Source: an uncultured Clostridia bacterium (lineage in GTDB: Bacteria > Bacillota > Clostridia > Christensenellales > Borkfalkiaceae). Taken from it: a DNA stretch of 64,000 nt. Both the position numbers and the translations under genes were made by a program. Location: NCBI GenBank assembly GCA_947626935.1, contig CANQUD010000001.1, forward strand, positions 34,089 through 98,088. The letters are read 5' to 3'. The first letter of the stretch is position 1. Each line of letters begins with the position of its first letter. Shown piece after piece: positions 3,705 to 51,129 of this stretch. The notes under the pieces were generated by a model. The model made no database searches. It saw only the letters and a list, made by a program, of their open reading frames with translations, and had not been told where the DNA came from.

Positions 3705-4306
3705 TCTCTCTCAAATTTGTTGATGCCCGCCGCCCGCACGAGGTATTCGAGGAGCATCTGTCTGCATTCTAAAATGTACAGGGTCTTTCCGAGCGATCCG
3801 CCGACAAGCAGGTAGATGAACTGCTTGTCCTCCGCGGGATACTTGTTCGGCGTCAAGAACTTCGGCTTATTGCCCTGCAGTCCGCGCAGGACATTGTCGT
3901 AGGAAGGTTTCTCGCAATATCCGATCTTCAGGATGGAATCCGCCGAGATCGTTCCGAAATACTTCCTCGATCTGCCGTTAAAGACCTTGGTGATACGGAG
4001 TTCGTCCTCGACAAAGGTATAGTCGTAACTGAGGTTGAATCTCTTTTTGATGAACCAAAAGACAACGCCGCCGCCCACAAAGGACAGGATAAAGATGAGC
4101 CAGACGCCGATGATGACGACTTTTTGGACGGTCTCCAGTTCTTCGTTTCCGATCACGCCCTGAAAGACGGACGTCGCAAAGAAAGCGGTCACGCCCGCGA
4201 CGACGAAACAGAGGATGGAAAGGACGAGAAAAAGGATATAGAACTTCTCTTCCGTCGCGGCGCGGCTGCAGACGGCGCTCTCTTCATATAAAAGGTCCCG
4301 TTGCAT
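3701..4306 (-). CDS. Hypothetical membrane protein (two N-terminal TM helices plus a soluble C-terminal domain)
   Basis: 201-aa ORF. Its start overlaps the carB stop and its stop overlaps the desulfurase start. Two hydrophobic helices are visible. I do not recognise the family. Confidence 0.6.
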   Translation of the reverse strand: MQRDLLYEESAVCSRAATEEKFYILFLVLSILCFVVAGVTAFFATSVFQGVIGNEELETVQKVVIIGVWLIFILSFVGGGVVFWFIKKRFNLSYDYTFVEDELRITKVFNGRSRKYFGTISADSILKIGYCEKPSYDNVLRGLQGNKPKFLTPNKYPAEDKQFIYLLVGGSLGKTLYILECRQMLLEYLVRAAGINKFERE

Positions 4307-7300
4307 CAGAATTCCACCTTCCCCTCATAAATTTTTCTGACATTGCCCGTCAGCGTAACGGAGCCGTCCGCATCGCAATGGACGGTCAGGTCCCCTCCGC
4401 GTACCTTGACGGTGATATCTGTACCCGATTTGCACAAGCCGTTCGACACGCAGGCGAATGCCGCAGCCGCCGCCCCCGTGCCGCTCGAGTACGTCTCACC
4501 GTTCCCCTGCTCCCACGTGCGCATCTTGATGGTCGCCTCGTTGACGACTCTGACGGCGCCGATGTCGGGCTTCTCCGCAAAGTTCTTGTTCTCCCCGATC
4601 GCGTCGGCGATGTCCTTCAGGGAGACTTCCTCCACGCGGTCGCAGAATACGATGTAGTTCTGTCTGCCGAGGTCGACGAGCACCGATCTCTCCGATTCGA
4701 CGCCCTTCCTGGGCAGTTTCCCCGCGGGGAGCTTCTTCAGACGCGGTTTCCCGAGTTCCACGCTTGCCGATGTGACGACGCCGCCGAAGGAGAATACTTT
4801 GAGTTCCTTCACTCCGTTCATCGTCTCGATCGTCATGGTCTCCTTTGGGACGATGCCCTTCTCGTACAGATATTTGGCTGCGCAGCGGATGGCATTGCCC
4901 GCGATCGCCCCCTCGGAGCCGTCTTGGTTGAAAATGCGCATCTTCGCATCCGCGACCTGCGATCTGGTCAGAATGACGATGCTGTCCCCGCCGATCCCGT
5001 AGTGTCGGTTGACGAAGTTCACGGCGAGGGACTCGGGACAGGTGATCTTCTCTTCCATGTCCTCGAAGAAGATGAAGTCATTCCCGCACGATTCGAGCTT
5101 GGTGAAGTCGAGCTTGGTCCGCTCGGTGCGGAGATGGTTGATATCCACAAGCTCGGTATTATTTTCGGTAAATTTGCTCGCGATGATGTCACAGAGCGCG
5201 TTTGCCGTATCGAGAGAGGTCAGGACGGTGATGCCGAGCAGGATCGCATGATGGTGCAGTTCGATATAGTCCTGAATGGAATCGACGTCCGTCTTGCCCG
5301 TATAGACGATGTAATCGATCTTTCCCTCGTCCATGAGCTTGCAGACCTGCTTCGTCGCCTTGAGACGTTCGACGACGGTGACGTCTGCGCCGAGGTCGGA
5401 GATGACCTTCGCCGTGCCCGCGGTCGCATACAGGCGGCAGCCGAGATCGGCAAATTTCTTTGCGATGGAGACAAGTTCGGGCTTATCCTGATCGTTGACG
5501 GTGAAATAGACGCCGACGGGCTTCTCCTTTGTCGGATGGCACATCTTGAAGCCCGCGGAGACGAGTCCCTTGAAGAGCGCTTCCTCGATTGTCTTGCCGA
5601 TGCCGAGCACCTCGCCCGTGGACTTCATTTCTGGCCCGAGCTGGGAATTGACGTCGTTGAGTTTTTCGAAGGAGAACACGGGGACTTTGACTGCAACGTA
5701 GGGAGAATCGGGATAGAGTCCCGTTCCGTAACCGAGTTTTTTGAGTTTTGCCCCCGCCATGATCTTGGTGGCAAGCTCTACCATGGGCACCCCCGTCACC
5801 TTGGAGATGTACGGGATCGTGCGGCTCGCACGGGGGTTGACTTCGATGACGTAGAGCTGGTTCCGATAGATGAGATATTGGATATTGATGAGACCCTTTG
5901 TCTTGAGTTCGAGCGCAAGTTGCGTGGAGACTTCCACGATCCTCGCCTTCATCGCATCGGAAAGATGGTAGGGCGGATAGACGGCGATGGAGTCGCCCGA
6001 ATGCACGCCCGCGCGTTCGACGTGTTGCATGACCCCGGGGATCAGCACGTCGACGCCGTCCGAAATGGCATCGACCTCAAGCTCGCTCCCCATCAGGTAT
6101 TTGTCGCAGAGGACGGGGTTCTCGATGCGCTGCGAGAGGATCACGTCCATATAGCGGGAAATGTCGTTTTCGGTGAAGGCGATCGTCATGTTCTGCCCGC
6201 CGATGACATAGCTCGGGCGGAGCAGGACGGGATAGCCGAGCGTCTCCGCGGCGCGGATCGCTTCCTCTTTCGTCATGACGGTCAGCCCCTTGGGACGGGA
6301 AATGGAGAATCGTTCCAAAAGTTCGTCGAAGCGTTCCCGATCCTCCGCCATGTCCACACTGTCGGCGCTTGTCCCGAGGATCCGCACCCCCGTCTTTGCG
6401 AGGTAGGCGCAGAGCTTGATCGCCGTCTGTCCCCCGAAGGTGATGACGACGCCGTACGGCTTCTCCACGTCGATGACATTCTGCACATCCTCGGGCGTAA
6501 GAGATTCGAAATAGAGCCTGTCCGCCGTATCGAAATCGGTGGAGACCGTCTCGGGATTGTTGTTGATAATGATGACTTCGTATCCGAGCTGTTTGAGCGT
6601 CCAGACGCAATGGACGGAAGAATAGTCGAATTCGATCCCCTGCCCGATGCGGATGGGACCCGAACCGATGACGATGACCCTCTTTTTGCGGGAACGTTCG
6701 ACAAATGGCTTTGCCTCGTCGTGCGCGGGGTCGTCGTACGTCGAATAGAAGTACGGGGTCGCGGCGCTGAACTCGGCGGCGCAGGTGTCGACCATCTTAA
6801 AGACAGCCCGTCTGTGCGCCGGCAGCTTCTGCCCCGAGAGTCCGAGGAGCGTCTTATCGGTAAATCCGAGCCGTTTCCCTTCCAGATACTCTGCGCGGGT
6901 GAGCTTTTTCCCCGTGATGTGCTTCTCGTAGCGGATGAGGTTGACAAACTTTTCGAGGAACCACTCGTCGATCTTGGTGACGCCGTAGATCTCATCGACG
7001 GGGATCCCCTTCTTGAGCGCCGCATAGACGGCGAAGAGCCGTTCGTCGGTCATCTTCGTGATCTCGATGCGGAGCTGTTCCTGCGTCATCTTTTCGAACT
7101 TCGGGTGGTCGAGCGTCTCGAGGGAGATCTCTGCGCCGCGGACTGCTTTCATGATCGCCTGTTCGAAGGACGATCCGATCGCCATGACTTCCCCCGTCGC
7201 CTTCATACGGGATCCCAACGTCCGCTTTGCGTACAAAAATTTATCAAAGGGCCACTTGGGGAGCTTCACGACGACATAGTCGATCGCGGGTTCGAAGCAG

Positions 7301-9617: not shown

Positions 9618-9638
9618 TATGCCTGACATAGTACTATG
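9618..9638 (-). repeat. Quasi-palindromic dispersed element, copy upstream of the carA promoter
   Basis: Plus strand reads TATGCCTGACATAGTACTATG. 16 nt are identical to the 51114-51129 copy. Confidence 0.85.
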
Positions 9639-10161: not shown

Positions 10162-10898
10162 TGCCCGTCCTCCGCAAAGTCCACGCGGAAACGGGTCAGC
10201 ACGTCTCCGTCCGCACACGCTTCACAGATCGTATAGCTGTCAAGATCTTGCCGCAAAAGAACGATCTCTTTCCCCTCTTTGGCTTGCTTGATATAGTTGA
10301 TGCAGAACGAGGAGATGCGCTTCCTTGATAGTTCTTCCATCGTGAAGCAATCAGTGAAGAAATCGAGGTATCTCGTATTGTTGGCGTGCAGATAATGGTC
10401 GCAATGGGAGACGTTCACGCGCATGCGGTAGACTTCCCTACCCTCGGTGAGTTTTGCGATCTTCCAATTCGGGACTTCCACCGTCTTTTCGTTCCTGTAG
10501 GGGCATTTTTCGTTGGTCTCCCCGAGTTTTTCGGGAAGGAGCAGCGAAAAGTCGTTCATATCGACGAGGCACCAGCGGGAAGCGAGCGCCGCGACCTCTT
10601 CCTCGCCCGAAAGAACGCGATAATGGCGTTCAAAGATGACGTGGCGGGGCGGGAGCGGCCATGTTTCCACAGTGATCGTTTCCCCGAGGCGGATGGGACG
10701 GCGGAACTTGCAATAGGTGTTCACCACCAAAAACCCGTAATGGAGCGGCTTCAGATCGTCATAACCGAATCCGAGTTCGTCCGCGCTTCTGCAGGCAGAC
10801 TCCTGCACGAGCGCGAGGAGCGCCGTCAATGACAGCTCATCCTTGAAATCAAAGTCGGAATATCTCAAAGCATATGTTTTTCTGTTGCAGTACGCCAT
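10158..10898 (-). CDS. Acyl-ACP thioesterase (double hot-dog, Fat family)
   Basis: 246 aa. The pattern YSDFDFKDELSLTALLALVQE...FLVVNTYCKFRRP is typical of bacterial acyl-ACP thioesterases. Confidence 0.75.
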   Translation of the reverse strand: MAYCNRKTYALRYSDFDFKDELSLTALLALVQESACRSADELGFGYDDLKPLHYGFLVVNTYCKFRRPIRLGETITVETWPLPPRHVIFERHYRVLSGEEEVAALASRWCLVDMNDFSLLLPEKLGETNEKCPYRNEKTVEVPNWKIAKLTEGREVYRMRVNVSHCDHYLHANNTRYLDFFTDCFTMEELSRKRISSFCINYIKQAKEGKEIVLLRQDLDSYTICEACADGDVLTRFRVDFAEDGQ

Positions 10899-30220: not shown

Positions 30221-32656
30221 ATGGATATCAAGAAAATCGAAAAAAAGTGGCAGGAGAAGTGGGAAGCGGCGAAGTTCAACCGCTTCGATCCCGCAGACAA
30301 GGAGAGAGAAAAACTCTACGTCCTTGAAATGTTCTCCTATCCCTCGGGCGCAAAGCTGCACATCGGGCATTGGTACAACTACGGTCCCACCGATTCCTAT
30401 GCACGGTTCAAGCGGATGCAGGGCTATAACGTGTTCCAGCCGATGGGCTTTGACGCGTTCGGGCTTCCCGCCGAAAATTACGCCATCAAGACGGGCATCC
30501 ATCCCAAGGATTCCACCCTCAAGAACATCGAGACGATGGAAGGTCAGCTCAAGGCGATGGGCGCCATGTTCGACTGGTCCGCAGAGATCAAGACGTGCAC
30601 CGAAGAGTACTACAAATGGACGCAATGGATGTTCCTGCAGCTCTACAAAAAGGGGCTTGCGTACAGAAAGGAAGCGCCCGTCAACTGGTGTCCTTCCTGC
30701 AACACCGTTCTCGCGAACGAACAGGTCGTGGAAGGCAGGTGCGAGCGCTGTGACTCCCCTGTCGTGCGGAAAAACCTCACGCAGTGGTTCTTCAAGATCA
30801 CGGCGTATGCCGAAGAGCTTCTCTCCGGTCTCGACACGGTCGACTGGCCCGAAAAGACAAAGAATATGCAGCGCAACTGGATCGGCAGGTCCACGGGGTG
30901 CGAGATCGAGTTCGAATGCGAAAACGGGGAAAAATTCAAGGTCTATACCACCCGTTGCGACACGGTGTACGGCGTTACCTATGTCGTGCTCGCGCCCGAA
31001 CATCCTCTCGCCCGCAAACTGACGACCCCCGAACAGCGGGATGCCGTGGAAGCCTACATCGACTATGCTTCCCGCGCCAACGAGATCGAGCGTCTCTCTT
31101 CCACGCGCGAAAAGACGGGCGTGTTTACGGGTTCCTACTGCACCAACCCCGTGACGGGGAAAAAGATCCCGATCTATCTTGCTGATTACGTCCTCTATTC
31201 GTACGGCACGGGCGCGGTGATGGCGGTCCCCGCACACGACGAGAGAGACTTCGCCTTCGCGACGAAATACGGGCTTCCCATCGTCAAAGTCATCGAAAAA
31301 CAGGGCGGAGAGACCATTTTGCCCTTCACCGAGGACGGGATCGTCGCCTGTTCTTCCCCCTTTGACGGACTTGTCGGAGAGGAAGCACGGGAGAAGATCG
31401 CCGCGTGCATCGCCTCGGTCGGCAAGGGCGGAAAGAAGGTCAACTACCGTCTCCGCGACTGGCTCGTCTCCCGCCAGCGGTACTGGGGCGCTCCCATTCC
31501 CGTCATTCACTGCAAAAAGTGCGGTGCGGTGCCCGTTCCCGAAAAGGATCTGCCCGTGAAGCTCCCCTATGACGTGGAATTCCGTCCCGACGGGAAATCT
31601 CCCCTCGCAAAGTGCGAGAAATTCATGAATACGACCTGTCCCAAGTGTGGCGGACAGGCGCTCCGCGATCCCGATACACTCGACACCTTCGTGTGCTCGA
31701 GCTGGTACTATCTCCGCTATGCCGATCCCAAGAACGACAAGGCGCCCTTCGACCGCGAAAAAGTTGACCGTCTTCTGCCCGTCGACGTCTATGTGGGCGG
31801 GGCGGAACACTCGTGCATGCACCTCCTGTACGCCCGTTTTTTCACCAAGGCGCTCCGCGACATGGGATATCTCGACTTCGACGAACCCTTCAAGCGGCTC
31901 GTCCACCAAGGCGTCATTTTGGGTCCCGACGGGAACAGGATGTCGAAATCGCACGGGAATGTCGTCTCGCCCGACGATTATGTCAACGAATACGGCGCCG
32001 ACGCGTTCAGGCTGTACCTGATGTTCGGCTTCTCCTATACCGAGGGCGGACCGTGGAACGACGACGGCATCAAGGCGATCTCCAAGTTCATGGACCGCGT
32101 GGAAAAGCTCGTCAACAGGGCTGCGGGGATCGGGAAAAAGCAGGAACTTCCCTTCGGTGCGGAGGAAAAGGCGCTCAACTACGCCCGCAACTTCAACATC
32201 AAACGGGTCTCCGAGGACATGGAAGCGTTCTCCTTCAACACCGCCATCGCACGGCTCATGGAACTGACGAACGCCCTCTATAAGTACGACGGCTTGACGG
32301 GAGAAAAGAATCTTTGGCTCTTCCGCGAGACCGTCAAGGACCTCGTTCTCCTGCTTGCCCCCTGCGCTCCCCACTTCTGCGAGGAACTCTGGGAGATGCT
32401 GGGCGGAAAGGGATTCGTCTTTGAACAGCCCTTCCCGAAGGAAGATCAGGCGGCGCTCGTGCTCGACGAGAAGGAATACGCCGTGCAGGTGAACAGCAAG
32501 ATCGTCTGCCGCGTCATGATCCCCACCGCCTACTCCGAAAAGGAGATCGAAGAATATGTGCAGACCCTTCCCGAGGTTGCCGAAAAGACTGCGGGGAAAT
32601 CGGTCAAAAAATGTATCGTCGTCCTCGGACGGCTCGTCAACCTGATCGTCGGCTGA
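30221..32656 (+). CDS. leuS: Leucyl-tRNA synthetase
   Basis: HIGH (HIGH/W) and KMSKS (RMSKSHGN) motifs, CP1 editing domain. 811 aa. Confidence 0.97.
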
Positions 32657-32670
32657 CCGAAATAAAAACG

Positions 32671-32696
32671 AAACCGCCGAATTTCAGGCGGTTTTT
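32671..32696 (+). terminator. leuS rho-independent terminator
   Basis: AAACCGCC-gaatttca-GGCGGTTT followed by TTT. Confidence 0.8.
32682..32696 (+). repeat. Left direct repeat of the islet (part of the leuS terminator)
   Basis: TTTCAGGCGGTTTTT, identical to 34955-34969. Confidence 0.8.
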
Positions 32697-32806
32697 ATAG
32701 GGATTTAGAATTAAGCGGTTTGGCGGTTAGTCAAACCGCATTTTCGTACCGCAAAAGCGGGCGAACGTTTCTTTTGAGGGGGAGCAGGATAGGGATTGCA
32801 GGGAAA

Positions 32807-32938
32807 TTATTTTTTCTTTTTCGGTGCTCCGTTGTTTTTTTCGTAGTATGCCGCAATCGCAGCCTTTTGCTTTTTCCGTGCCTCGGGCGTTTTGGCTTTT
32901 ACATAGTTGCTTTTCTTTTTTTCTTTATTAAAGAACAT
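32807..32938 (-). CDS. Possible 43-aa lysine-rich small protein
   Basis: MFFNKEKKKSNYVKAKTPEARKKQKAAIAAYYEKNNGAPKKKK. The ATG overlaps the last codons of the upstream 255-aa gene in another frame. It is below the ORF-track length cut-off. Confidence 0.3.
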   Translation of the reverse strand: MFFNKEKKKSNYVKAKTPEARKKQKAAIAAYYEKNNGAPKKKK

Positions 32939-33695
32939 CTTGTTCGCCCTCCATGCTTATGACCGCTTCAAAGTCGCATTCGTCACAGTAAGCCTGCAAC
33001 TGCTCTATCAGTCTCTTACTCGGCTTGAATTTTTGTTTGATGATATATCCGTCTTGCATATCACATAGCGGCGTTGCCATGATTTTTTTCTCGTTGATAT
33101 CATAGAATACGCAAAAATTGTCCGAATTCATCCAATATCCGTAAAAATAATCAAAAGCAAAAATCTTGTGCCGTTCATTTGTAGATCGGCTTCTGAAATA
33201 AAGGATATGGTGCGAACAGCAAGCGTTCGAAAATACATCCAGCTCGCCGTCGAAAACCAATGTCTCTCGTTTGTATAATGGCAACATGCAGTATTCGTTC
33301 AGCAGTCCGCGAATATAAACGGATAGTTCTTGCGCCGTTAACATGATTTCCGACGTCTCTATTTCATCAAAGACGGAAATGTTTTCTTTTGAAGGACGTA
33401 TCCAGATAGATTCACCCAATTCGCCTAAATTTTCATCATTGAAATACACCCTGTCAATCACGGTGTTTACGGCGTGATAGATGTTTTCACTGTCTGCTCG
33501 ATTATATTCGTCTTTTAATATATTCTCGATTTGGCTGCGTCTTTCCTTGCGCACTTCCACAAGCGTGGGGATGAGCTTGTTCAAAAGCGCATTTTTATTT
33601 GATTTGCCGTTTTTGATGAATTTGAAGCGCAGCGCGTCGATTTCCAAAATGTTCGCCACAAAGGACGAAACCTTCACCTTGATTTTGTCGTTCAT
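32928..33695 (-). CDS. Islet protein: putative ribbon-helix-helix (RHH) N-terminus plus WYL-like C-terminal domain (tentative regulator)
   Basis: 255 aa with an AGGAGTGA SD. The N-terminus IKVKVSSFVANILEIDALRF...NALLNKLIPTLVE fits a strand-helix-helix pattern. The C-terminal ILYFRSRSTNERHKIFAFDYFYGYWMNSDNFCVFYDINEKKIMATPLCDMQD resembles a WYL domain. Confidence 0.6.
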   Translation of the reverse strand: MNDKIKVKVSSFVANILEIDALRFKFIKNGKSNKNALLNKLIPTLVEVRKERRSQIENILKDEYNRADSENIYHAVNTVIDRVYFNDENLGELGESIWIRPSKENISVFDEIETSEIMLTAQELSVYIRGLLNEYCMLPLYKRETLVFDGELDVFSNACCSHHILYFRSRSTNERHKIFAFDYFYGYWMNSDNFCVFYDINEKKIMATPLCDMQDGYIIKQKFKPSKRLIEQLQAYCDECDFEAVISMEGEQDVL

Positions 33696-33715
33696 TCGGT
33701 CACTCCTATGATTAA

Positions 33716-33744
33716 ATTATACAAACTGTCTACCAAAATGTCAA
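33716..33744 (-). promoter_or_regulatory. Consensus promoter for the 255-aa islet gene
   Basis: Minus strand reads TTGACA, 17 nt, TATAAT. A GGTAGACA half-site sits in the spacer. Confidence 0.7.
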
Positions 33745-33771
33745 GAAAATTCCGATAAACAATCAATATTG

Positions 33772-33799
33772 TCTACCGTAAAATTATGAATACGGTAGA
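33772..33799. promoter_or_regulatory. Inverted-repeat operator between the divergent islet promoters
   Basis: TCTACCGTA, 10 nt, TACGGTAGA is a perfect 9-bp inverted repeat. A third GTCTACC copy lies at 33728-33734. Confidence 0.6.
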
Positions 33800-33809
33800 T
33801 AGAATTTTG

Positions 33810-33838
33810 TTGAATTACAAGATTTTTCCTGCTATAAT
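33810..33838 (+). promoter_or_regulatory. Promoter for the toxin-like / acidic gene pair
   Basis: TTGAAT, 17 nt, TATAAT. Confidence 0.7.
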
Positions 33839-33858
33839 ATAAATGCAGGTGGAGCGAA

Positions 33859-34275
33859 ATGCGATATCACTTGACAAAATTTATGCGAGGTATTAAAATG
33901 AGCATAGTTGGTTTTTTGCTCAAGCCGAAAAAGGAAATGGCGAAAAAAGATACGCGGTATGTAAAGGTCGGTAAATACTATCTAACTTCCCATGCACAAA
34001 ATCGGATCGTTCAAAGGGAAAGGACTATGGATAAAGTCGATGTTTTGGACAATCTGTTTACAAAGCCCAATGCCATTACACAAATAAAATACAATAAGAA
34101 TGGAAAACCCTCATATGACCGTGTGGGCAAGAGAATTACGACAAGTATCAATCCAACTAACAACAATGTTGCGACTTGCCGCCCCGTAAGCAAAAAAGAG
34201 ATGAAACAATTCGGCTTGACCGATGTCGGAAAAGGAGGAAAAAGGAAATATGTTAAGCAAAAGTTTGGAAAGTAA
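33859..34275 (+). CDS. Basic islet protein, DUF4258/BrnT-like RNase-toxin candidate (tentative)
   Basis: 138 aa, very Lys/Arg-rich. The motif YYLTSHAQNRIVQRERTMDKVDVLDNL matches the H-A-x-x-R-x-x-x-R pattern I associate with DUF4258-type toxins. GGTGGAG SD. An alternative start is at 33898. Confidence 0.6.
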   Translation: MRYHLTKFMRGIKMSIVGFLLKPKKEMAKKDTRYVKVGKYYLTSHAQNRIVQRERTMDKVDVLDNLFTKPNAITQIKYNKNGKPSYDRVGKRITTSINPTNNNVATCRPVSKKEMKQFGLTDVGKGGKRKYVKQKFGK

Positions 34276-34525
34276 ATTCACGCCGAGAGCAAAAGAAGAG
34301 GCTAAAAAACTTTTAGCCGAAATGAATATAACGGAGTTGAACGACGACAATCTCTATGAGGTTGAAGTTGAGCTTGACACAAGGGTAAACGGATTGGTAA
34401 CGATGGATGAAAGTGAACACCAACCGATAGATCATGAACTCTTGGAGATCTACGATACACTGACGGATATTATTCTGGAGCACGAAGAAGAGATCGATTT
34501 CCTGAACAGGCTGTTTTTGGAATAA
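34250..34525 (+). CDS. Acidic islet protein, antitoxin/immunity candidate
   Basis: 91 aa, Glu/Asp-rich. AAGGAGG SD. The ATG lies 26 nt inside the preceding gene. Confidence 0.55.
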   Translation: MLSKSLESKFTPRAKEEAKKLLAEMNITELNDDNLYEVEVELDTRVNGLVTMDESEHQPIDHELLEIYDTLTDIILEHEEEIDFLNRLFLE

Positions 34526-34567
34526 AAGAAAAAGGGAACAGAGCGGTAGCAAAAAAAATCGGGGTGA

Positions 34568-34819
34568 ATCCTGGGAACGACAAAGGTTAAGTTTTCACAG
34601 TCGGCGGTTGATTTTATTGCGAAGTATAAGATCGAAGAGTTTGGAATAATGGGCGAAATCAACGAAGATATGTTTTATAACATTATATGCTACGCCCGAC
34701 GACTACGATTCCTTTTTGCAACCCATGAGATTGACCCACAAATCGTTTTTGACGAAGAAACATCCAAAGCGGCAGGTGAATTTACAGCGGAATACGACAG
34801 TGTGGTTTTAAGGGACTAG
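34568..34819 (+). pseudogene. Open frame without a good start (first ATG at 34649); possible gene remnant or 56-aa acidic protein
   Basis: 84 stop-free codons begin right after a TGA. KVKFSQSAVDFIAKYKIEEFGIMGEINEDMFYNIICY... reads like coding sequence upstream of the first ATG. Confidence 0.3.
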
Positions 34820-34954
34820 ATGTTTGACTTGGATGACCTTAACCGCCGTTTGGAATTGCGGAAAACGAATTAACTTCCTTGACTCGCCCAGTCGTCTGTA
34901 AGGTGTATTCCTATATTAAATTAAGATTTTGTTTGATCCCCTATGCACCCCCGC

Positions 34955-34969
34955 TTTCAGGCGGTTTTT
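34955..34969 (+). repeat. Right direct repeat of the islet
   Basis: TTTCAGGCGGTTTTT, preceded by a degenerate copy of the terminator's left arm (CCCCCGC). Confidence 0.8.
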
Positions 34970-34979
34970 TTTGTGTTTT

Positions 34980-35007
34980 CATAGTATTATGCCACGCATA
35001 GTACTAT
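34980..35007. repeat. Quasi-palindromic dispersed element, two 17-nt units, 10 nt from the islet's right direct repeat
   Basis: CATAGTATTATGCCACG CATAGTACTAT. Confidence 0.8.
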
Positions 35008-35047
35008 TAAAAAGGTCAAATTTCGAGTCAAAAAGGGCGGTTTTCGG

Positions 35048-35908
35048 TCAATTCCCTCTCATCGAGCGGATGATGTGTTCGGCATAGAGGCGGGCGATGT
35101 TGACGCCCGTGACCCGTTCGATCCCGCCGAAAAAGGCGTTGGAGTTGACCTCACAGACGAGAAAACCCTTCTCGCCGAACAGAAGATCGACGCCGCAGTA
35201 ATCGAGTCCCATGACAGAGGTGACTTTCTCGCAGAGAACTCTTCCCTCTTCGCCGATGTCGAAGGGTTCTCCCCTTCCGCCCTGTTCGATGTTGGAACGG
35301 AAGTCTGTGTCGGAGACCCGTTTCATGCTTGCGGCGACCTTGCCGCCGATGCAGATGACGCGCACGTCCCTTCCCGCGCTCGTCCCGATAAACTCCTGAT
35401 AGAGATGCGGACGGAGCTTGAGCGTGTCGCAGAGGGTGTCCAGCTCCTCTCTCGTCTCGGCGAGATAGACTTGCTGCCCGAGAGAGCCGTAACATTCCTT
35501 GACGACGAGCGGGTACTTCTCCCATGCGAAGCCGCCCGTTTTCGCCTCTTCCTTGTAACAGAGCGGCGCGGGGAAGGTCTTGGGCATGGGAATGCCGTGC
35601 CCCGAGAGCGTGATGTGCGTCAGCATCTTGTCGTCGCACAGTTCTACCGCTTCCGCACGGTCGAAGAGACGCATCCCCCGCTTCTCAAGCATGCGGGGGG
35701 CGTACTTGTCCTTGTCGAGATAGATGCAGAGATCGTACCGCGCGGAGAGTTCTTCGGCGATATTTCCCCCGTCGATCCATGCCGTGCGGATATTTTGGAC
35801 GATGTCGCAGGAAACGCCGAGCTTCTCCAACTCTTCCTTGAGGCGTTTGGGCTGGTAAAGTTCGGAGTCCCGATCGAGATAGGGATTGATGAGAATGACC
35901 GCTTTCAT
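35048..35908 (-). CDS. RimK-family ATP-grasp ligase
   Basis: Start at ATG 35908 (MKAVILINPY). ATP-grasp blocks PLVVKECYGSLGQQVYL, RVICIGGKV and GVDLLF...VCEVNSN. Confidence 0.65.
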   Translation of the reverse strand: MKAVILINPYLDRDSELYQPKRLKEELEKLGVSCDIVQNIRTAWIDGGNIAEELSARYDLCIYLDKDKYAPRMLEKRGMRLFDRAEAVELCDDKMLTHITLSGHGIPMPKTFPAPLCYKEEAKTGGFAWEKYPLVVKECYGSLGQQVYLAETREELDTLCDTLKLRPHLYQEFIGTSAGRDVRVICIGGKVAASMKRVSDTDFRSNIEQGGRGEPFDIGEEGRVLCEKVTSVMGLDYCGVDLLFGEKGFLVCEVNSNAFFGGIERVTGVNIARLYAEHIIRSMRGN

Positions 35909-51108: not shown

Positions 51109-51129
51109 TATGTCTGACATAGTACTATG
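51109..51129 (-). repeat. Quasi-palindromic dispersed element, copy between the clpB stop and its terminator
   Basis: Plus strand reads TATGTCTGACATAGTACTATG. It contains the perfect 12-nt palindrome CATAGTACTATG. Confidence 0.85.

Follow-up and report, generated by a model that had tools for sequence, protein, structure and literature searches.

How a tract of AT-rich DNA came to lie inside the terminator of a housekeeping gene, while carrying no recombinase, is the question raised by the interval between leuS (30221-32656, + strand) and a RimK-type ATP-grasp gene (35048-35908, - strand) in the 64-kb stretch of DNA analyzed here (the window). The original prediction was that the 15-nt direct repeat bracketing this islet is the signature of a site-specific or target-duplicating insertion of foreign DNA. 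The repeat, TTTCAGGCGGTTTTT, is indeed exact, with two copies (32682-32696 and 34955-34969) and none elsewhere in the 64 kb, and is in this sense not a generic terminator sequence; with up to two mismatches it occurs at 4 sites in the window, vs 0.12 expected from shuffles. The predicted drop in GC was borne out by a profile in 300-nt segments (0.33–0.43 between the repeats, 0.57–0.60 outside); the DNA between the repeats is 40% GC and its flanks 55% (0.401 for the element vs 0.551 and 0.554 for the 10 kb on each side), and the islet is the sole extended low-GC tract of the window. The following features define its junctions with the host.

32671-32678, + strand: left arm AAACCGCC of the host's bidirectional leuS/rimK terminator, able to pair with 34960-34967 on the far side of the element
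32682-32696, + strand: left repeat copy, composed of TTTCA (32682-32686, a possible 5-bp target duplication) and the first 10 nt of the left terminal inverted repeat
34955-34969, + strand: right repeat copy, in which TTTCA (34955-34959) is followed by the right arm of the host terminator, GGCGGTTT (34960-34967), and by the T tract (to 34972)
34980-35008, no strand: native intergenic pair of CATAGTAYTATG palindromes, where host DNA begins to the right of the element

The left repeat copy does belong to the leuS terminator, of which it forms the 3' part of the loop, the right arm and the T tract; the hairpin, AAACCGCC-GAATTTCA-GGCGGTTT, lies 15 nt past the leuS stop codon (-14.6 kcal/mol, z -3.3). 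The degenerate left arm said to precede the right copy amounts to CCGC only, which does permit a 5-bp hairpin, but one that at -7.1 kcal/mol is not above shuffles in strength. The segments 32671-32678 and 34960-34967 form a perfect 8-nt arm across the element, matched by 0 of 5000 random position pairs. The CATAGTAYTATG motif is also found downstream of leuS in two relatives (L010 and L014). The same motif recurs elsewhere in the window. None of the five ORFs of the islet has a match in Pfam, NCBIfam, PHROG or PADLOC. As predicted, no integrase or transposase domain was found, either in the ORFs by HMM search or in the structure model of the largest protein, and no tyrosine or serine recombinase gene was found in the islet using Pfam, NCBIfam, PHROG and the fold of its p255 protein. 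The view that the islet is foreign DNA put into the leuS/rimK terminator without a recombinase is supported.

Comparison with related genomes, which had been suggested as a check, shows that the islet genes are not shared by relatives at this locus: they are absent from all 80 leuS loci compared, and in L007 and L010 (LeuS 79–81% identical) leuS and rimK are 60–115 nt apart with a single hairpin terminator and no cassette. The comparison yielded no empty site from the same species, and the interval itself varies, with other genes in L008 and L011 and no rimK in L014. A search for further copies of the islet located the same cassette in at least nine other, unrelated intergenic sites among housekeeping genes of related MAGs (after DAPDH/PemK, 2-Hacid_dh/SpoVG, YjeF, iPGM/PlsY, DnaJ, M20 peptidase/MatE, aminotransferase/TrpR, ftsH and rplQ), which supports the view that it is foreign DNA. 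The gene set is the same in every context examined, with a transposase in none of them, and homologues of p255 number at least 343. Each cassette lies 8–20 GC points below its own flanks. Two copies (L110 and L111) at different sites have 98.5% identical DNA and an identical p251 protein, with homology that stops at the ends and with host flanks of 0.49 vs 0.37 GC. In L114-L123 the toxin-partner pair occurs without p255, still bounded by inverted repeats and inside a split hairpin. The window and 1.48 Mb of related loci (mostly from other genomes) yielded neither further copies of the end sequence nor a helper transposase with matching ends. These data are best explained by a family of 1.9–2.3-kb cassettes that have terminal inverted repeats but lack a transposase and that are distributed among Christensenellales-like gut Clostridia. 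The prediction had left a choice between a decayed element and one mobilized in trans; mobilization in trans is favored and decay disfavored, because ORFs and ends are intact and near-identical copies exist in different hosts.

The boundaries of the element follow from comparison of its copies.

32687-32706, + strand: left terminal inverted repeat GGCGGTTTTTATAGGGATTT, which with the host left arm rebuilds the leuS terminator (-14.6 kcal/mol)
32715-32739, + strand: subterminal 10-bp hairpin within the element (-17.7 kcal/mol, z -4.2), kept in L087, L088 and L124
34829-34954, + strand: conserved right end, homologous to L087, L091 and L124 and closing in the right terminal inverted repeat GATCCCCTATGCACCCCCGC (34935-34954)

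The 12 element ends that were aligned share an imperfect terminal inverted repeat of ~20 nt, consensus GGGnGTTnTTCATAGGGAAT, and homology between copies ceases at identical ends. The inverted repeat of L087 is 19 nt at 84%; that of the window copy is weak (core ATAGGG(G)AT and a G-rich block) and is recognized mainly through homology to better copies. The right end is kept in L087, L091 and L124 despite differing internal cargo. At the left end, the segment beginning GGCGGTTTTT is homologous to the ends of other copies, and DNA homology to L087 and L124 begins at 32692-32697. The part of the left repeat copy that starts at GGCGG shares this homology with the terminal inverted repeats found elsewhere in the family, and is therefore element DNA and not duplicated target; on this alignment the target duplication would be TTTCA at most. 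Candidate duplications are TTTCA/TTTCA in the window copy (5/5), GAAAA/AAAAA in L124 (4/5) and 2–3 A/T-rich nt elsewhere. The apparent 15-nt direct repeat arises because the left end carries GGCGGTTTTT, which together with the orphaned left arm rebuilds the leuS terminator; the left end may have come to carry this segment by chance, or may have evolved it.

The nature of the target is indicated by the flanks of seven independent insertions, which in every case correspond to the arms of a single terminator hairpin that has been split: perfect inverted repeats of 6–19 nt, with A and T tracts, abut the element 10–40 nt past stop codons. Both arms are intact (L102, for example, has 19-nt perfect arms), and the arm sequences are unrelated among the seven sites. 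Complementarity of this quality was matched by a fraction of 0–0.0002 of 5000 random position pairs for five sites, and of 0.003 and 0.006 for the other two. The hairpin of L087 is imperfect and contains wobble pairs. A clean split hairpin was not seen at L088, L091 or L103; in its place L091 has an imperfect direct repeat of ~68 nt.

The reading that we consider probable is that the islet is a non-autonomous cassette that is moved in trans, is aimed at terminator hairpins and carries a regulated toxin-immunity or defense module. The islet (about 32687-34954) would have entered the apex of a bidirectional intrinsic terminator common to leuS and rimK and split its hairpin, leaving the arm AAACCGCC on the left and GGCGGTTT with the T tract on the right, and duplicating at most 5 bp (TTTCA). 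Movement would most likely be effected in trans by a transposase that recognizes the ~20-nt GGGnGTTnTTCATAGGGAAT ends and prefers hairpin or palindromic targets.

Insertion at a hairpin tip could also arise without transposition, if long palindromic terminators break at the tip (for example by the action of a hairpin-specific nuclease) and linear DNA is joined there by illegitimate recombination, the cassette then being frequent cargo of transformation or transduction and not a transposon. The location of the insertions exactly at the symmetry center of perfect palindromes with both arms intact would fit such capture, as would the failure to see a consistent target duplication or to find a helper. 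However, the ends of independent insertions coincide to the nucleotide and are inverted repeats of one another, which implies specific recognition of the ends; moreover, no other kinds of DNA were seen at such sites in the loci examined. We regard capture as quite improbable.

The exactness of the 15-nt repeat, far beyond chance, and its position abutting the element on both sides are what would be expected had a circular islet recombined with the leuS terminator through a 15-nt core, TTTCAGGCGGTTTTT, under the action of a tyrosine or serine integrase supplied in trans, leaving the repeats as attL and attR. This is very unlikely, as the other copies occupy unrelated target sequences with no common core, their flanking direct repeats are no longer than about 3–5 A/T-rich nt, the flanks at seven sites are inverted and not direct repeats, and the left repeat copy is itself element DNA, given its alignment with the inverted repeats that terminate the other copies. 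Of the original prediction, then, insertion of foreign DNA into a terminator is supported, but a role of the 15-nt direct repeat as its signature is not, be it as att core or as duplicated target.

The left half of the cassette encodes a predicted regulator and its small companion, on the strand opposite to leuS.

32807-32938, - strand: p43, a lysine-rich protein of 43 aa (pI 10.3), encoded in overlap with the 3' end of the p255 gene
32928-33695, - strand: p255, predicted to be a transcription regulator in which a DNA-binding domain at the N terminus is joined to a WYL domain (AF2 pLDDT 85.8)
33716-33744, - strand: promoter of p255, a perfect TTGACA-17-TATAAT whose spacer contains a putative operator box, GTCTACC (33728-33734)
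33770-33801, no strand: predicted operator, the palindrome TGTCTACC-N16-GGTAGA(c/t)A, lying between the two divergent promoters

The structure model of p255 predicts a WYL-domain regulator: Foldseek gives WYL1 as best match (6oaw, E 4e-8, TMq 0.65), followed by DriD, BrxR, PafBC and CapW, and the alignment to WYL1 spans the whole protein, including the N-terminal strand-helix-helix of the model. The protein itself has no direct Pfam WYL match; a remote relative, P0382, matches Pfam WYL (PF13280) at E 1e-7. The palindrome TGTCTACC-N16-GGTAGACA and the third box are kept in 9/9 cassettes aligned, and p43 is present after every full-length p255 homologue examined (91–96% identical in close copies). 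By binding the TGTCTACC palindrome and the third box in its own promoter, p255 would control both itself and the divergent operon, and a ligand on the WYL domain may switch expression, by analogy with CapW, BrxR and DriD; if so, the cassette would therefore be a regulated toxin-immunity, addiction or abortive-infection-type module, which we offer as a proposal. The WYL regulators used for comparison are WYL1 of type VI-D CRISPR (6oaw, PMC6547453), CapW (PMC9122588), BrxR (PMC9122601, PMC9122589) and DriD. Like them, p255 combines an N-terminal DNA-binding domain with a WYL domain, has a predicted palindromic operator at promoters, and is encoded adjacent and divergent to a conflict-system operon. 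Unlike them, it is short (255 aa), has no clear C-terminal WCX domain or direct Pfam WYL match, is always followed by a 43-aa basic ORF, and resides on a mobile cassette with a two-gene toxin module instead of with CRISPR, CBASS or BREX.

The divergent operon contains a candidate toxin, its putative neutralizer and a further small ORF.

33810-33838, + strand: toxin-operon promoter TTGAAT-17-TATAAT with extended -10 TG, its elements conserved in the cassette alignment
33898-34275, + strand: p125, a basic BECR/DUF4258-like toxin candidate (pI 10.3; AF2 pLDDT 89.4)
34250-34525, + strand: p91, an acidic antitoxin or immunity candidate (pI 4.3) with a GGAGG ribosome-binding site, overlapping the 3' end of the toxin gene
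34649-34819, + strand: p56, a small acidic ORF and putative gene inside a ~290-nt segment specific to the window copy

From model comparisons p125 is predicted to be a basic RNase-like toxin of the BECR/DUF4258 kind, with p91 as its overlapping acidic neutralizer. The best Foldseek match of p125 in the PDB is the CdiA-CT toxin of NC101 (prob 0.96, E 0.046, a moderate match), with colicin D/E5 and RelE also found; in BFVD it matches toxin-like C-terminal domains of phage proteins at E 4e-7 and, weakly, a DUF4258 phage protein, and hhalign gives 95.6% for residues 419–494 of a MuF2 minor capsid protein, in the C-terminal extension. Pfam DUF4258 is not matched by p125, and PADLOC defense models gave no match at E up to 1. 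p125 has an invariant HAQNR motif; a longer alternative of the gene is a 138-aa ORF from 33859. The p125 and p91 genes overlap by 26 nt and their products are of opposite charge (pI 10.3 vs 4.3), with p91 diverging faster than the toxin (15 detectable homologues vs 132). The segment 34536-34828, which includes p56, has a counterpart in no other cassette. Compared with BECR-fold toxins (the DUF4258/RelE superfamily of type II TA, PMC11980606; CdiA-CT of E. coli NC101, 5i4r; polymorphic-toxin C-termini of MuF phage proteins, PMC5576092), the candidate p125 is similar in that its alpha/beta domain is small and basic and has an H-A-x-x-R motif, and in that a small ORF follows it. It differs in matching no Pfam family and in a gene order with the toxin first, and its partner p91 is unrelated to the ORF downstream of the MuF2-type prophage minor capsid gene.

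Since no transposase lies near the cassette in any context examined, p255 and the basic p43 could themselves be an unorthodox machinery that recognizes extruded terminator hairpins and inserts the element. They are its most conserved products (65–91% identity vs 42–85% for the toxin), and the WYL domain is a fold that binds single-stranded nucleic acid, single-stranded DNA being bound by the WYL proteins DriD and CapW according to PDB entry titles. However, the WYL1 regulator fold covers the whole p255 model and leaves no nuclease or recombinase domain, the operator motif is in the promoter region and absent from the ends, and both ends persist, within a terminator, in a derivative that lacks p255 and p43; self-mobilization is thus most unlikely. 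Finally, a native ancestral cluster of deviant composition that was lost in relatives, with the repeat a generic terminator sequence, would accord with the variable leuS-rimK interval but is already contradicted, and has almost no probability left, given the cassette with the same ends in at least nine other contexts, the 15 GC points between cassette and flanks, the 98.5%-identical pair in hosts of very different GC, and a 15-mer found nowhere else in the window.

The preferred reading, a cassette moved in trans, places the family beside several known kinds of element. Mobile insertion cassettes (MICs, e.g., MIC231 of Bacillus cereus), MITEs and TIMEs are non-autonomous IS/Tn derivatives (PMC3913671, PMC2266710, PMC4133298), and like them the cassette has terminal inverted repeats around passenger genes, no transposase, many sites and presumed mobilization in trans. 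Unlike MICs, it has no known parent IS with matching ends (none found in the window or the 1.48 Mb), it targets a structure in the DNA (the apex of terminator hairpins), and its cargo is a regulator with a toxin-immunity pair; its candidate target duplications are 5/5 in the window copy, 4/5 in L124 and 2–3 A/T-rich nt elsewhere. IS1272/TnSha1 of staphylococci (IS1182 family) inserts into terminator hairpins in both orientations and without primary-sequence specificity (PMC4923244), and the cassettes likewise enter terminator hairpins irrespective of sequence and carry passenger genes. TnSha1, however, makes its cut inside the stem, with loss of part of the hairpin (PMC4923244), whereas the cassettes leave both arms intact and sit at the loop. 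TnSha1 also includes the IS1272 transposase, and the cassettes have no transposase of the IS1182 family. In IS1397, insertion is in the loop. IS1397, ISKpn1 and IS110/IS1111-type elements with guide RNAs target REP and other palindromes (PMC1525189, PMC11187229), and the cassettes resemble them in inserting in or beside extragenic palindromes. Their targets are repeated sequence families or RNA-guided sites, whereas the hairpins used by the cassettes are unrelated in sequence, and the cassettes have neither a DEDD or DDE transposase nor a long guide region of non-coding DNA.

A bolder form of the argument, which we put forward as doubtful, is that the cassettes represent a so far undescribed class of mobile element, one directed to the apex of intrinsic-terminator hairpins by structure rather than sequence. 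They would be served by a host or unlinked enzyme that has yet to be connected with any IS family, or by their own WYL protein and 43-aa basic peptide, would be self-insulated by rebuilt terminators, and would spread WYL-controlled RNase toxin-immunity (defense) modules across gut Clostridia of very different GC.

For annotation, such islets are to be found by a split hairpin and GGG...CATAGGGAAT ends, not by direct repeats. Current catalogues do not list the combination of WYL regulator, basic 43-aa protein and BECR-like toxin-immunity pair, which is a candidate defense system; its predicted toxin domain also occurs at the C-termini of MuF capsid proteins of phages. Should the targeting enzyme be found, it could serve as a structure-directed insertion tool. 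Terminator hairpins are abundant and nearly neutral landing sites ("safe harbors"), and a family of cassettes that uses them and rebuilds termination upon insertion would explain the integrase-free spread of small conflict modules in the housekeeping regions of uncultured gut Clostridia.

The 15-mer TTTCAGGCGGTTTTT occurs at 32682-32696 and 34955-34969 and has no further exact copy in the 64-kb window, while up to two mismatches give 4 sites in the window against 0.12 expected. With the left copy, a strong hairpin forms 15 nt 3' of the leuS stop codon (AAACCGCC-GAATTTCA-GGCGGTTT; -14.6 kcal/mol, z -3.3); in front of the right copy stands only CCGC, and this copy folds no better than shuffled sequences. 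The islet has a GC content of 0.401, compared with 0.55 on both sides, and a windowed GC profile, as the original prediction had proposed, shows no other extended stretch of low GC in the 64 kb. Its open reading frames are:

minus strand: p43 and p255
plus strand: p125/138, p91/100 and p56

None of the five matched Pfam, NCBIfam, PHROGs or PADLOC, an Rfam search of 32000-35600 gave nothing above the gathering score, and p56 lies within a segment of ~290 nt that is peculiar to the window copy. With two exact repeat copies, the drop in GC and ORFs lacking any family match, the feature originally described, an exact repeat pair enclosing genes unrelated to their surroundings, without a recombinase, is confirmed as an observation.

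The prediction that foreign DNA had entered the leuS terminator was to be judged by comparing the leuS-rimK interval in relatives. A LeuS scan using one genome per species returned 80 loci, and the islet genes are absent from the leuS loci of the closest relatives (LeuS identity 71-86%). In two of these (L007 and L010) the gap between leuS and the rimK-like gene, which converge, is 60-115 nt and holds a single long perfect hairpin; the L014 leuS locus has no rimK, and in L008 and L011 different genes occupy the interval. The single-hairpin intervals, together with the absence of the islet genes, bear out the insertion. Right of the islet a CATAGTAYTATG palindrome pair is found at 34980-35008, and since the same motif also lies 3' of leuS in L010 and L014, host DNA has resumed there. 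Exact-protein look-ups gave no empty allele from the same species (LeuS has no record, RimK occurs only on islet-bearing contigs), identical p255 is present on six contigs that all represent the same locus, and translated searches of cassette flanks against the collected loci gave no additional empty sites. The leuS/rimK terminator does hold a cassette, the islet, that came in by horizontal transfer.

The interval is itself variable among relatives: L008 (10554-11903) and L011 (10724-12099) share a conserved gene for a predicted membrane protein of 209-231 aa upstream of rimK, with one differing extra gene each. As a separate observation, a palindromic 12-mer, CATAGTACTATG, has 12 strand-matches where 0.03 would be expected; it is intergenic, at times paired 17 nt apart, kept downstream of leuS in relatives, and resembles a binding site for a regulator or a REP-like element of the clade. 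Its sites are:

window: 1154-1182, 9627-9638, 34980-35008 and 51118-51129
L010: ~4963-4995
L014: ~10452-10475

The search for further islet copies that had been suggested recovered the same module at unrelated sites. At least 343 p255 homologues (65-91% identity; 274 clusters at 50% identity) are present in MAGs of Clostridia that carry the name Christensenellaceae or Candidatus Fimimonas. In all ten homologue contexts inspected, a toxin-like gene and small partner pointing one way, and a p251-256 gene with a 43-45-aa ORF pointing the opposite way, are inserted among unrelated housekeeping genes, and no recombinase gene was found in any cassette examined. The contexts include:

DAPDH/PemK and RelBE
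2-Hacid_dh and SpoVG
YjeF and PemK
iPGM and PlsY
MgtE and DnaJ
M20 peptidase and MatE
aminotransferase and TrpR
downstream of rplQ

The GC content of every cassette is 8-20 points below that of its own flanks. In L110 and L111 (both 4050-5942) the cassette DNA (GC 0.29) is 98.5% identical over 1.96 kb and encodes an identical p251 protein (P0095) at different sites, in host flanks with GC of 0.49 and 0.37; on these sequences the pair indicates recent transfer between distinct organisms. No p255 homologues were found in viral contigs by profile scan, nor in phages or plasmids by tblastn, and a metagenome scan with the p255 profile returned only 10 loci, mostly short.

Other small repeats and modules lie next to some cassettes. 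The L087 and L091 cassettes directly adjoin PemK or RelB/ParE modules, which suggests an accumulation of small conflict modules at the same terminators; between the PemK toxin gene and the cassette L087 also carries iteron-like repeats of 24-25 nt with GATTTGA (4820-4973), and in L124 (1-210) a 37-nt unit (GGGGAGCTGTCACGCAGTCCCCTTGGCTCCCCTCTCA), present in tandem at least 5 times without mismatch, stands beside the toxin-side cassette end.

At seven loci the sequences flanking the cassette are inverted, not direct, repeats of each other (left flank, then right flank):

window: AAACCGCC, GGCGGTTT
L102: GAATAAAAAAAGGACTTC, GAAGTCCTTTTTTTATTC
L107: AAAACGGATTC, GAATCCGTTTT
L110: AAAAAAGGAGAGC, GCTCTCCTTTTTT
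L111: TCAGCCT, AGGCTGA
L114: ACACCT, AGGTGT
L124: AAAAACACCC, GGGTGTTTTT

Perfect arms as long as those at the junctions were obtained from a fraction of 0-0.0002 of 5000 random position pairs for five loci, and of 0.003 and 0.006 for the other two. Every arm lies 10-40 nt past a stop codon and is accompanied by A or T tracts, and each pair is therefore a single intrinsic terminator, in many cases bidirectional, cut in two; relatives have long perfect palindromes of like kind as their native terminators. In L087 the hairpin is imperfect, with wobble pairs. L088, L091, L092 and L103 yielded no clean boundaries and were left out of the seven. L091 is flanked by an imperfect direct repeat of ~68 nt (4326-4393 and 6280-6350), the right copy of which is homologous to internal left-end sequence of other cassettes, and this arrangement may reflect a tandem insertion or the remains of one.

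Homology between cassette copies at different sites ends at defined points, and 12 aligned ends form imperfect terminal inverted repeats with the consensus GGGnGTTnTTCATAGGGAAT (in L087, 19 nt at 84%). If 32687-34954 is taken as the element, the sequence at the left junction is AAACCGCC GAA TTTCA / GGCGGTTTTTATAGGG and that at the right junction CCCTATGCACCCCCGC / TTTCA GGCGGTTTTTTTT. Because GGCGGTTTTTATAGGGA can be aligned with the ends of other copies (e.g., GGCGGTTACTCTAAGGGA in L102 and GGCGGGTGTCCATAGGA in L124) it is assigned to the element, and the target duplication can therefore be TTTCA alone. Candidate duplications elsewhere are GAAAA/AAAAA in L124 and 2-3 A/T-rich nt in other copies; the predicted empty site in the window would read AAACCGCCGAATTTCAGGCGGTTTTTTTTGTGTTTTCATAG. 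The remaining 10 nt of the 15-nt identity arise because the G-rich end of the element equals the right arm of the host hairpin, and this end together with the orphaned left arm rebuilds a leuS terminator. The outer G-rich block of the inverted repeat matches the host arm in the window (GGCGGTTTTT, 32687-32696 and 34960-34969) and at both ends in L124 (GGGTGT), and does not in L102, L110 or L111; the identity could reflect chance, a preference for end-like targets, or selection restoring termination. The original interpretation thus stands as to horizontal acquisition and insertion in a terminator. Its reading of the 15-nt direct repeat as the insertion signature does not, since past TTTCA the left copy is the element's own end, and the other copies are flanked by inverted repeats.

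The same ends are retained by a deletion derivative (L114-L123) that keeps the toxin pair without p255 and p43 and lies in a split terminator after ftsH (L114 3858-4763; 0.9 kb). A trans-acting transposase would move the cassette via its ends, the target presumably being picked by structure or palindrome; a scan for that end sequence elsewhere, sought as the trace of a helper IS, found no additional copy in the window or the collected loci. An origin in the Tn3 family was considered for the G-rich start, a TTAAG ~30 nt inward and the window copy's 5-bp duplication, and was not adopted, given the shorter ends, the inconsistent duplication and the fact that no Tn3-family transposase was seen. 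A Xer-exploiting element was rejected on the diversity of targets in place of one dif-like site, a prophage or satellite remnant on the lack, toxin domain aside, of phage genes or matches, and an integron cassette on the lack of attC and integrase.

The predicted structure of p255 (pLDDT 85.8) matches over its full length WYL1 of type VI-D CRISPR (6oaw, E 4e-8, TMq 0.65), its C-terminal half matches DriD, BrxR, PafBC and CapW, and remote sequence relatives match Pfam WYL and WCX; sequence-only searches of the PDB with p255 and p125 profiles gave noise only. The divergent promoter region contains a palindrome, TGTCTACC-N16-GGTAGACA, and a third box within the spacer of the perfect TTGACA-17-TATAAT promoter of p255, all kept in 9/9 aligned cassettes. 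We infer that p255 regulates both promoters via this conserved operator, and by analogy with CapW, BrxR and DriD (PMC9122588, PMC9122601) it would act as a WYL-ligand switch. The small p43 (pI 10.3) is always coupled to p255.

The p125 start at 33898 agrees with NCBI protein P0121 (100% identical). This basic protein (pI 10.3; model pLDDT 89.4) has an invariant motif, G-Y-x4-HAQNR-x5-R-x3-K, and its best PDB matches are RNase toxins of the BECR fold, CdiA-CT NC101 (prob 0.96, but E 0.046) followed by colicin D/E5 and RelE; searches of BFVD pair it with the C-terminal domains of larger phage proteins (E 4e-7) and with a DUF4258 protein. The domain corresponds to residues 419-494 of a 'minor capsid protein' from a Streptococcus prophage (tblastn; hhalign 95.6%, E 1e-8):

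241-1961: Streptococcus phage Javan523 prophage protein (L127, MK448793.1), N-terminal Phage_min_cap2, C-terminal extension homologous to p125

Phage_min_cap2 is the MuF2 domain of polymorphic toxins in the naming of PMC5576092, and the Javan523 capsid protein gene overlaps a 75-aa ORF that comes next, a layout like that of a polymorphic toxin and its immunity gene. In the cassette the acidic p91 (pI 4.3) is encoded by a gene that overlaps the toxin gene, has a strong ribosome-binding site, and diverges faster than the toxin (15 detectable homologues vs 132). It is inferred from these features that p125 and p91 are an RNase-type toxin and its neutraliser. Three p91-like proteins (P0401, P0402 and P0403; 66-72% identical to p91), each with a longest contig of 13,469 nt, may lie on one contig, and if so could form an immunity-like gene array.

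The cassettes have the architecture of non-autonomous derivatives such as mobile insertion cassettes (PMC3913671, PMC2266710, PMC4133298); no parent IS is known for their ends. IS1272/TnSha1 (PMC4923244) is nearest in target choice, using terminator hairpins without sequence specificity; however, it cuts the stem, partially deletes the hairpin and encodes its own transposase, whereas the cassettes insert at the apex and leave the arms intact. REP-targeting and RNA-guided IS elements (PMC1525189, PMC11187229) use other targets and other enzymes. The cargo is similar to WYL-regulated defence operons and BECR/DUF4258 toxin-antitoxin pairs (PMC11980606), but none of their HMMs matched, and a limited literature search found no description of the cassette. 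Comparison of the sequenced copies shows a discrete element, without a recombinase gene and with common ends, that has spread horizontally and lies at the centre of terminator hairpins; the family and its targeting of the terminator apex appear undescribed, yet they are forms of known kinds.
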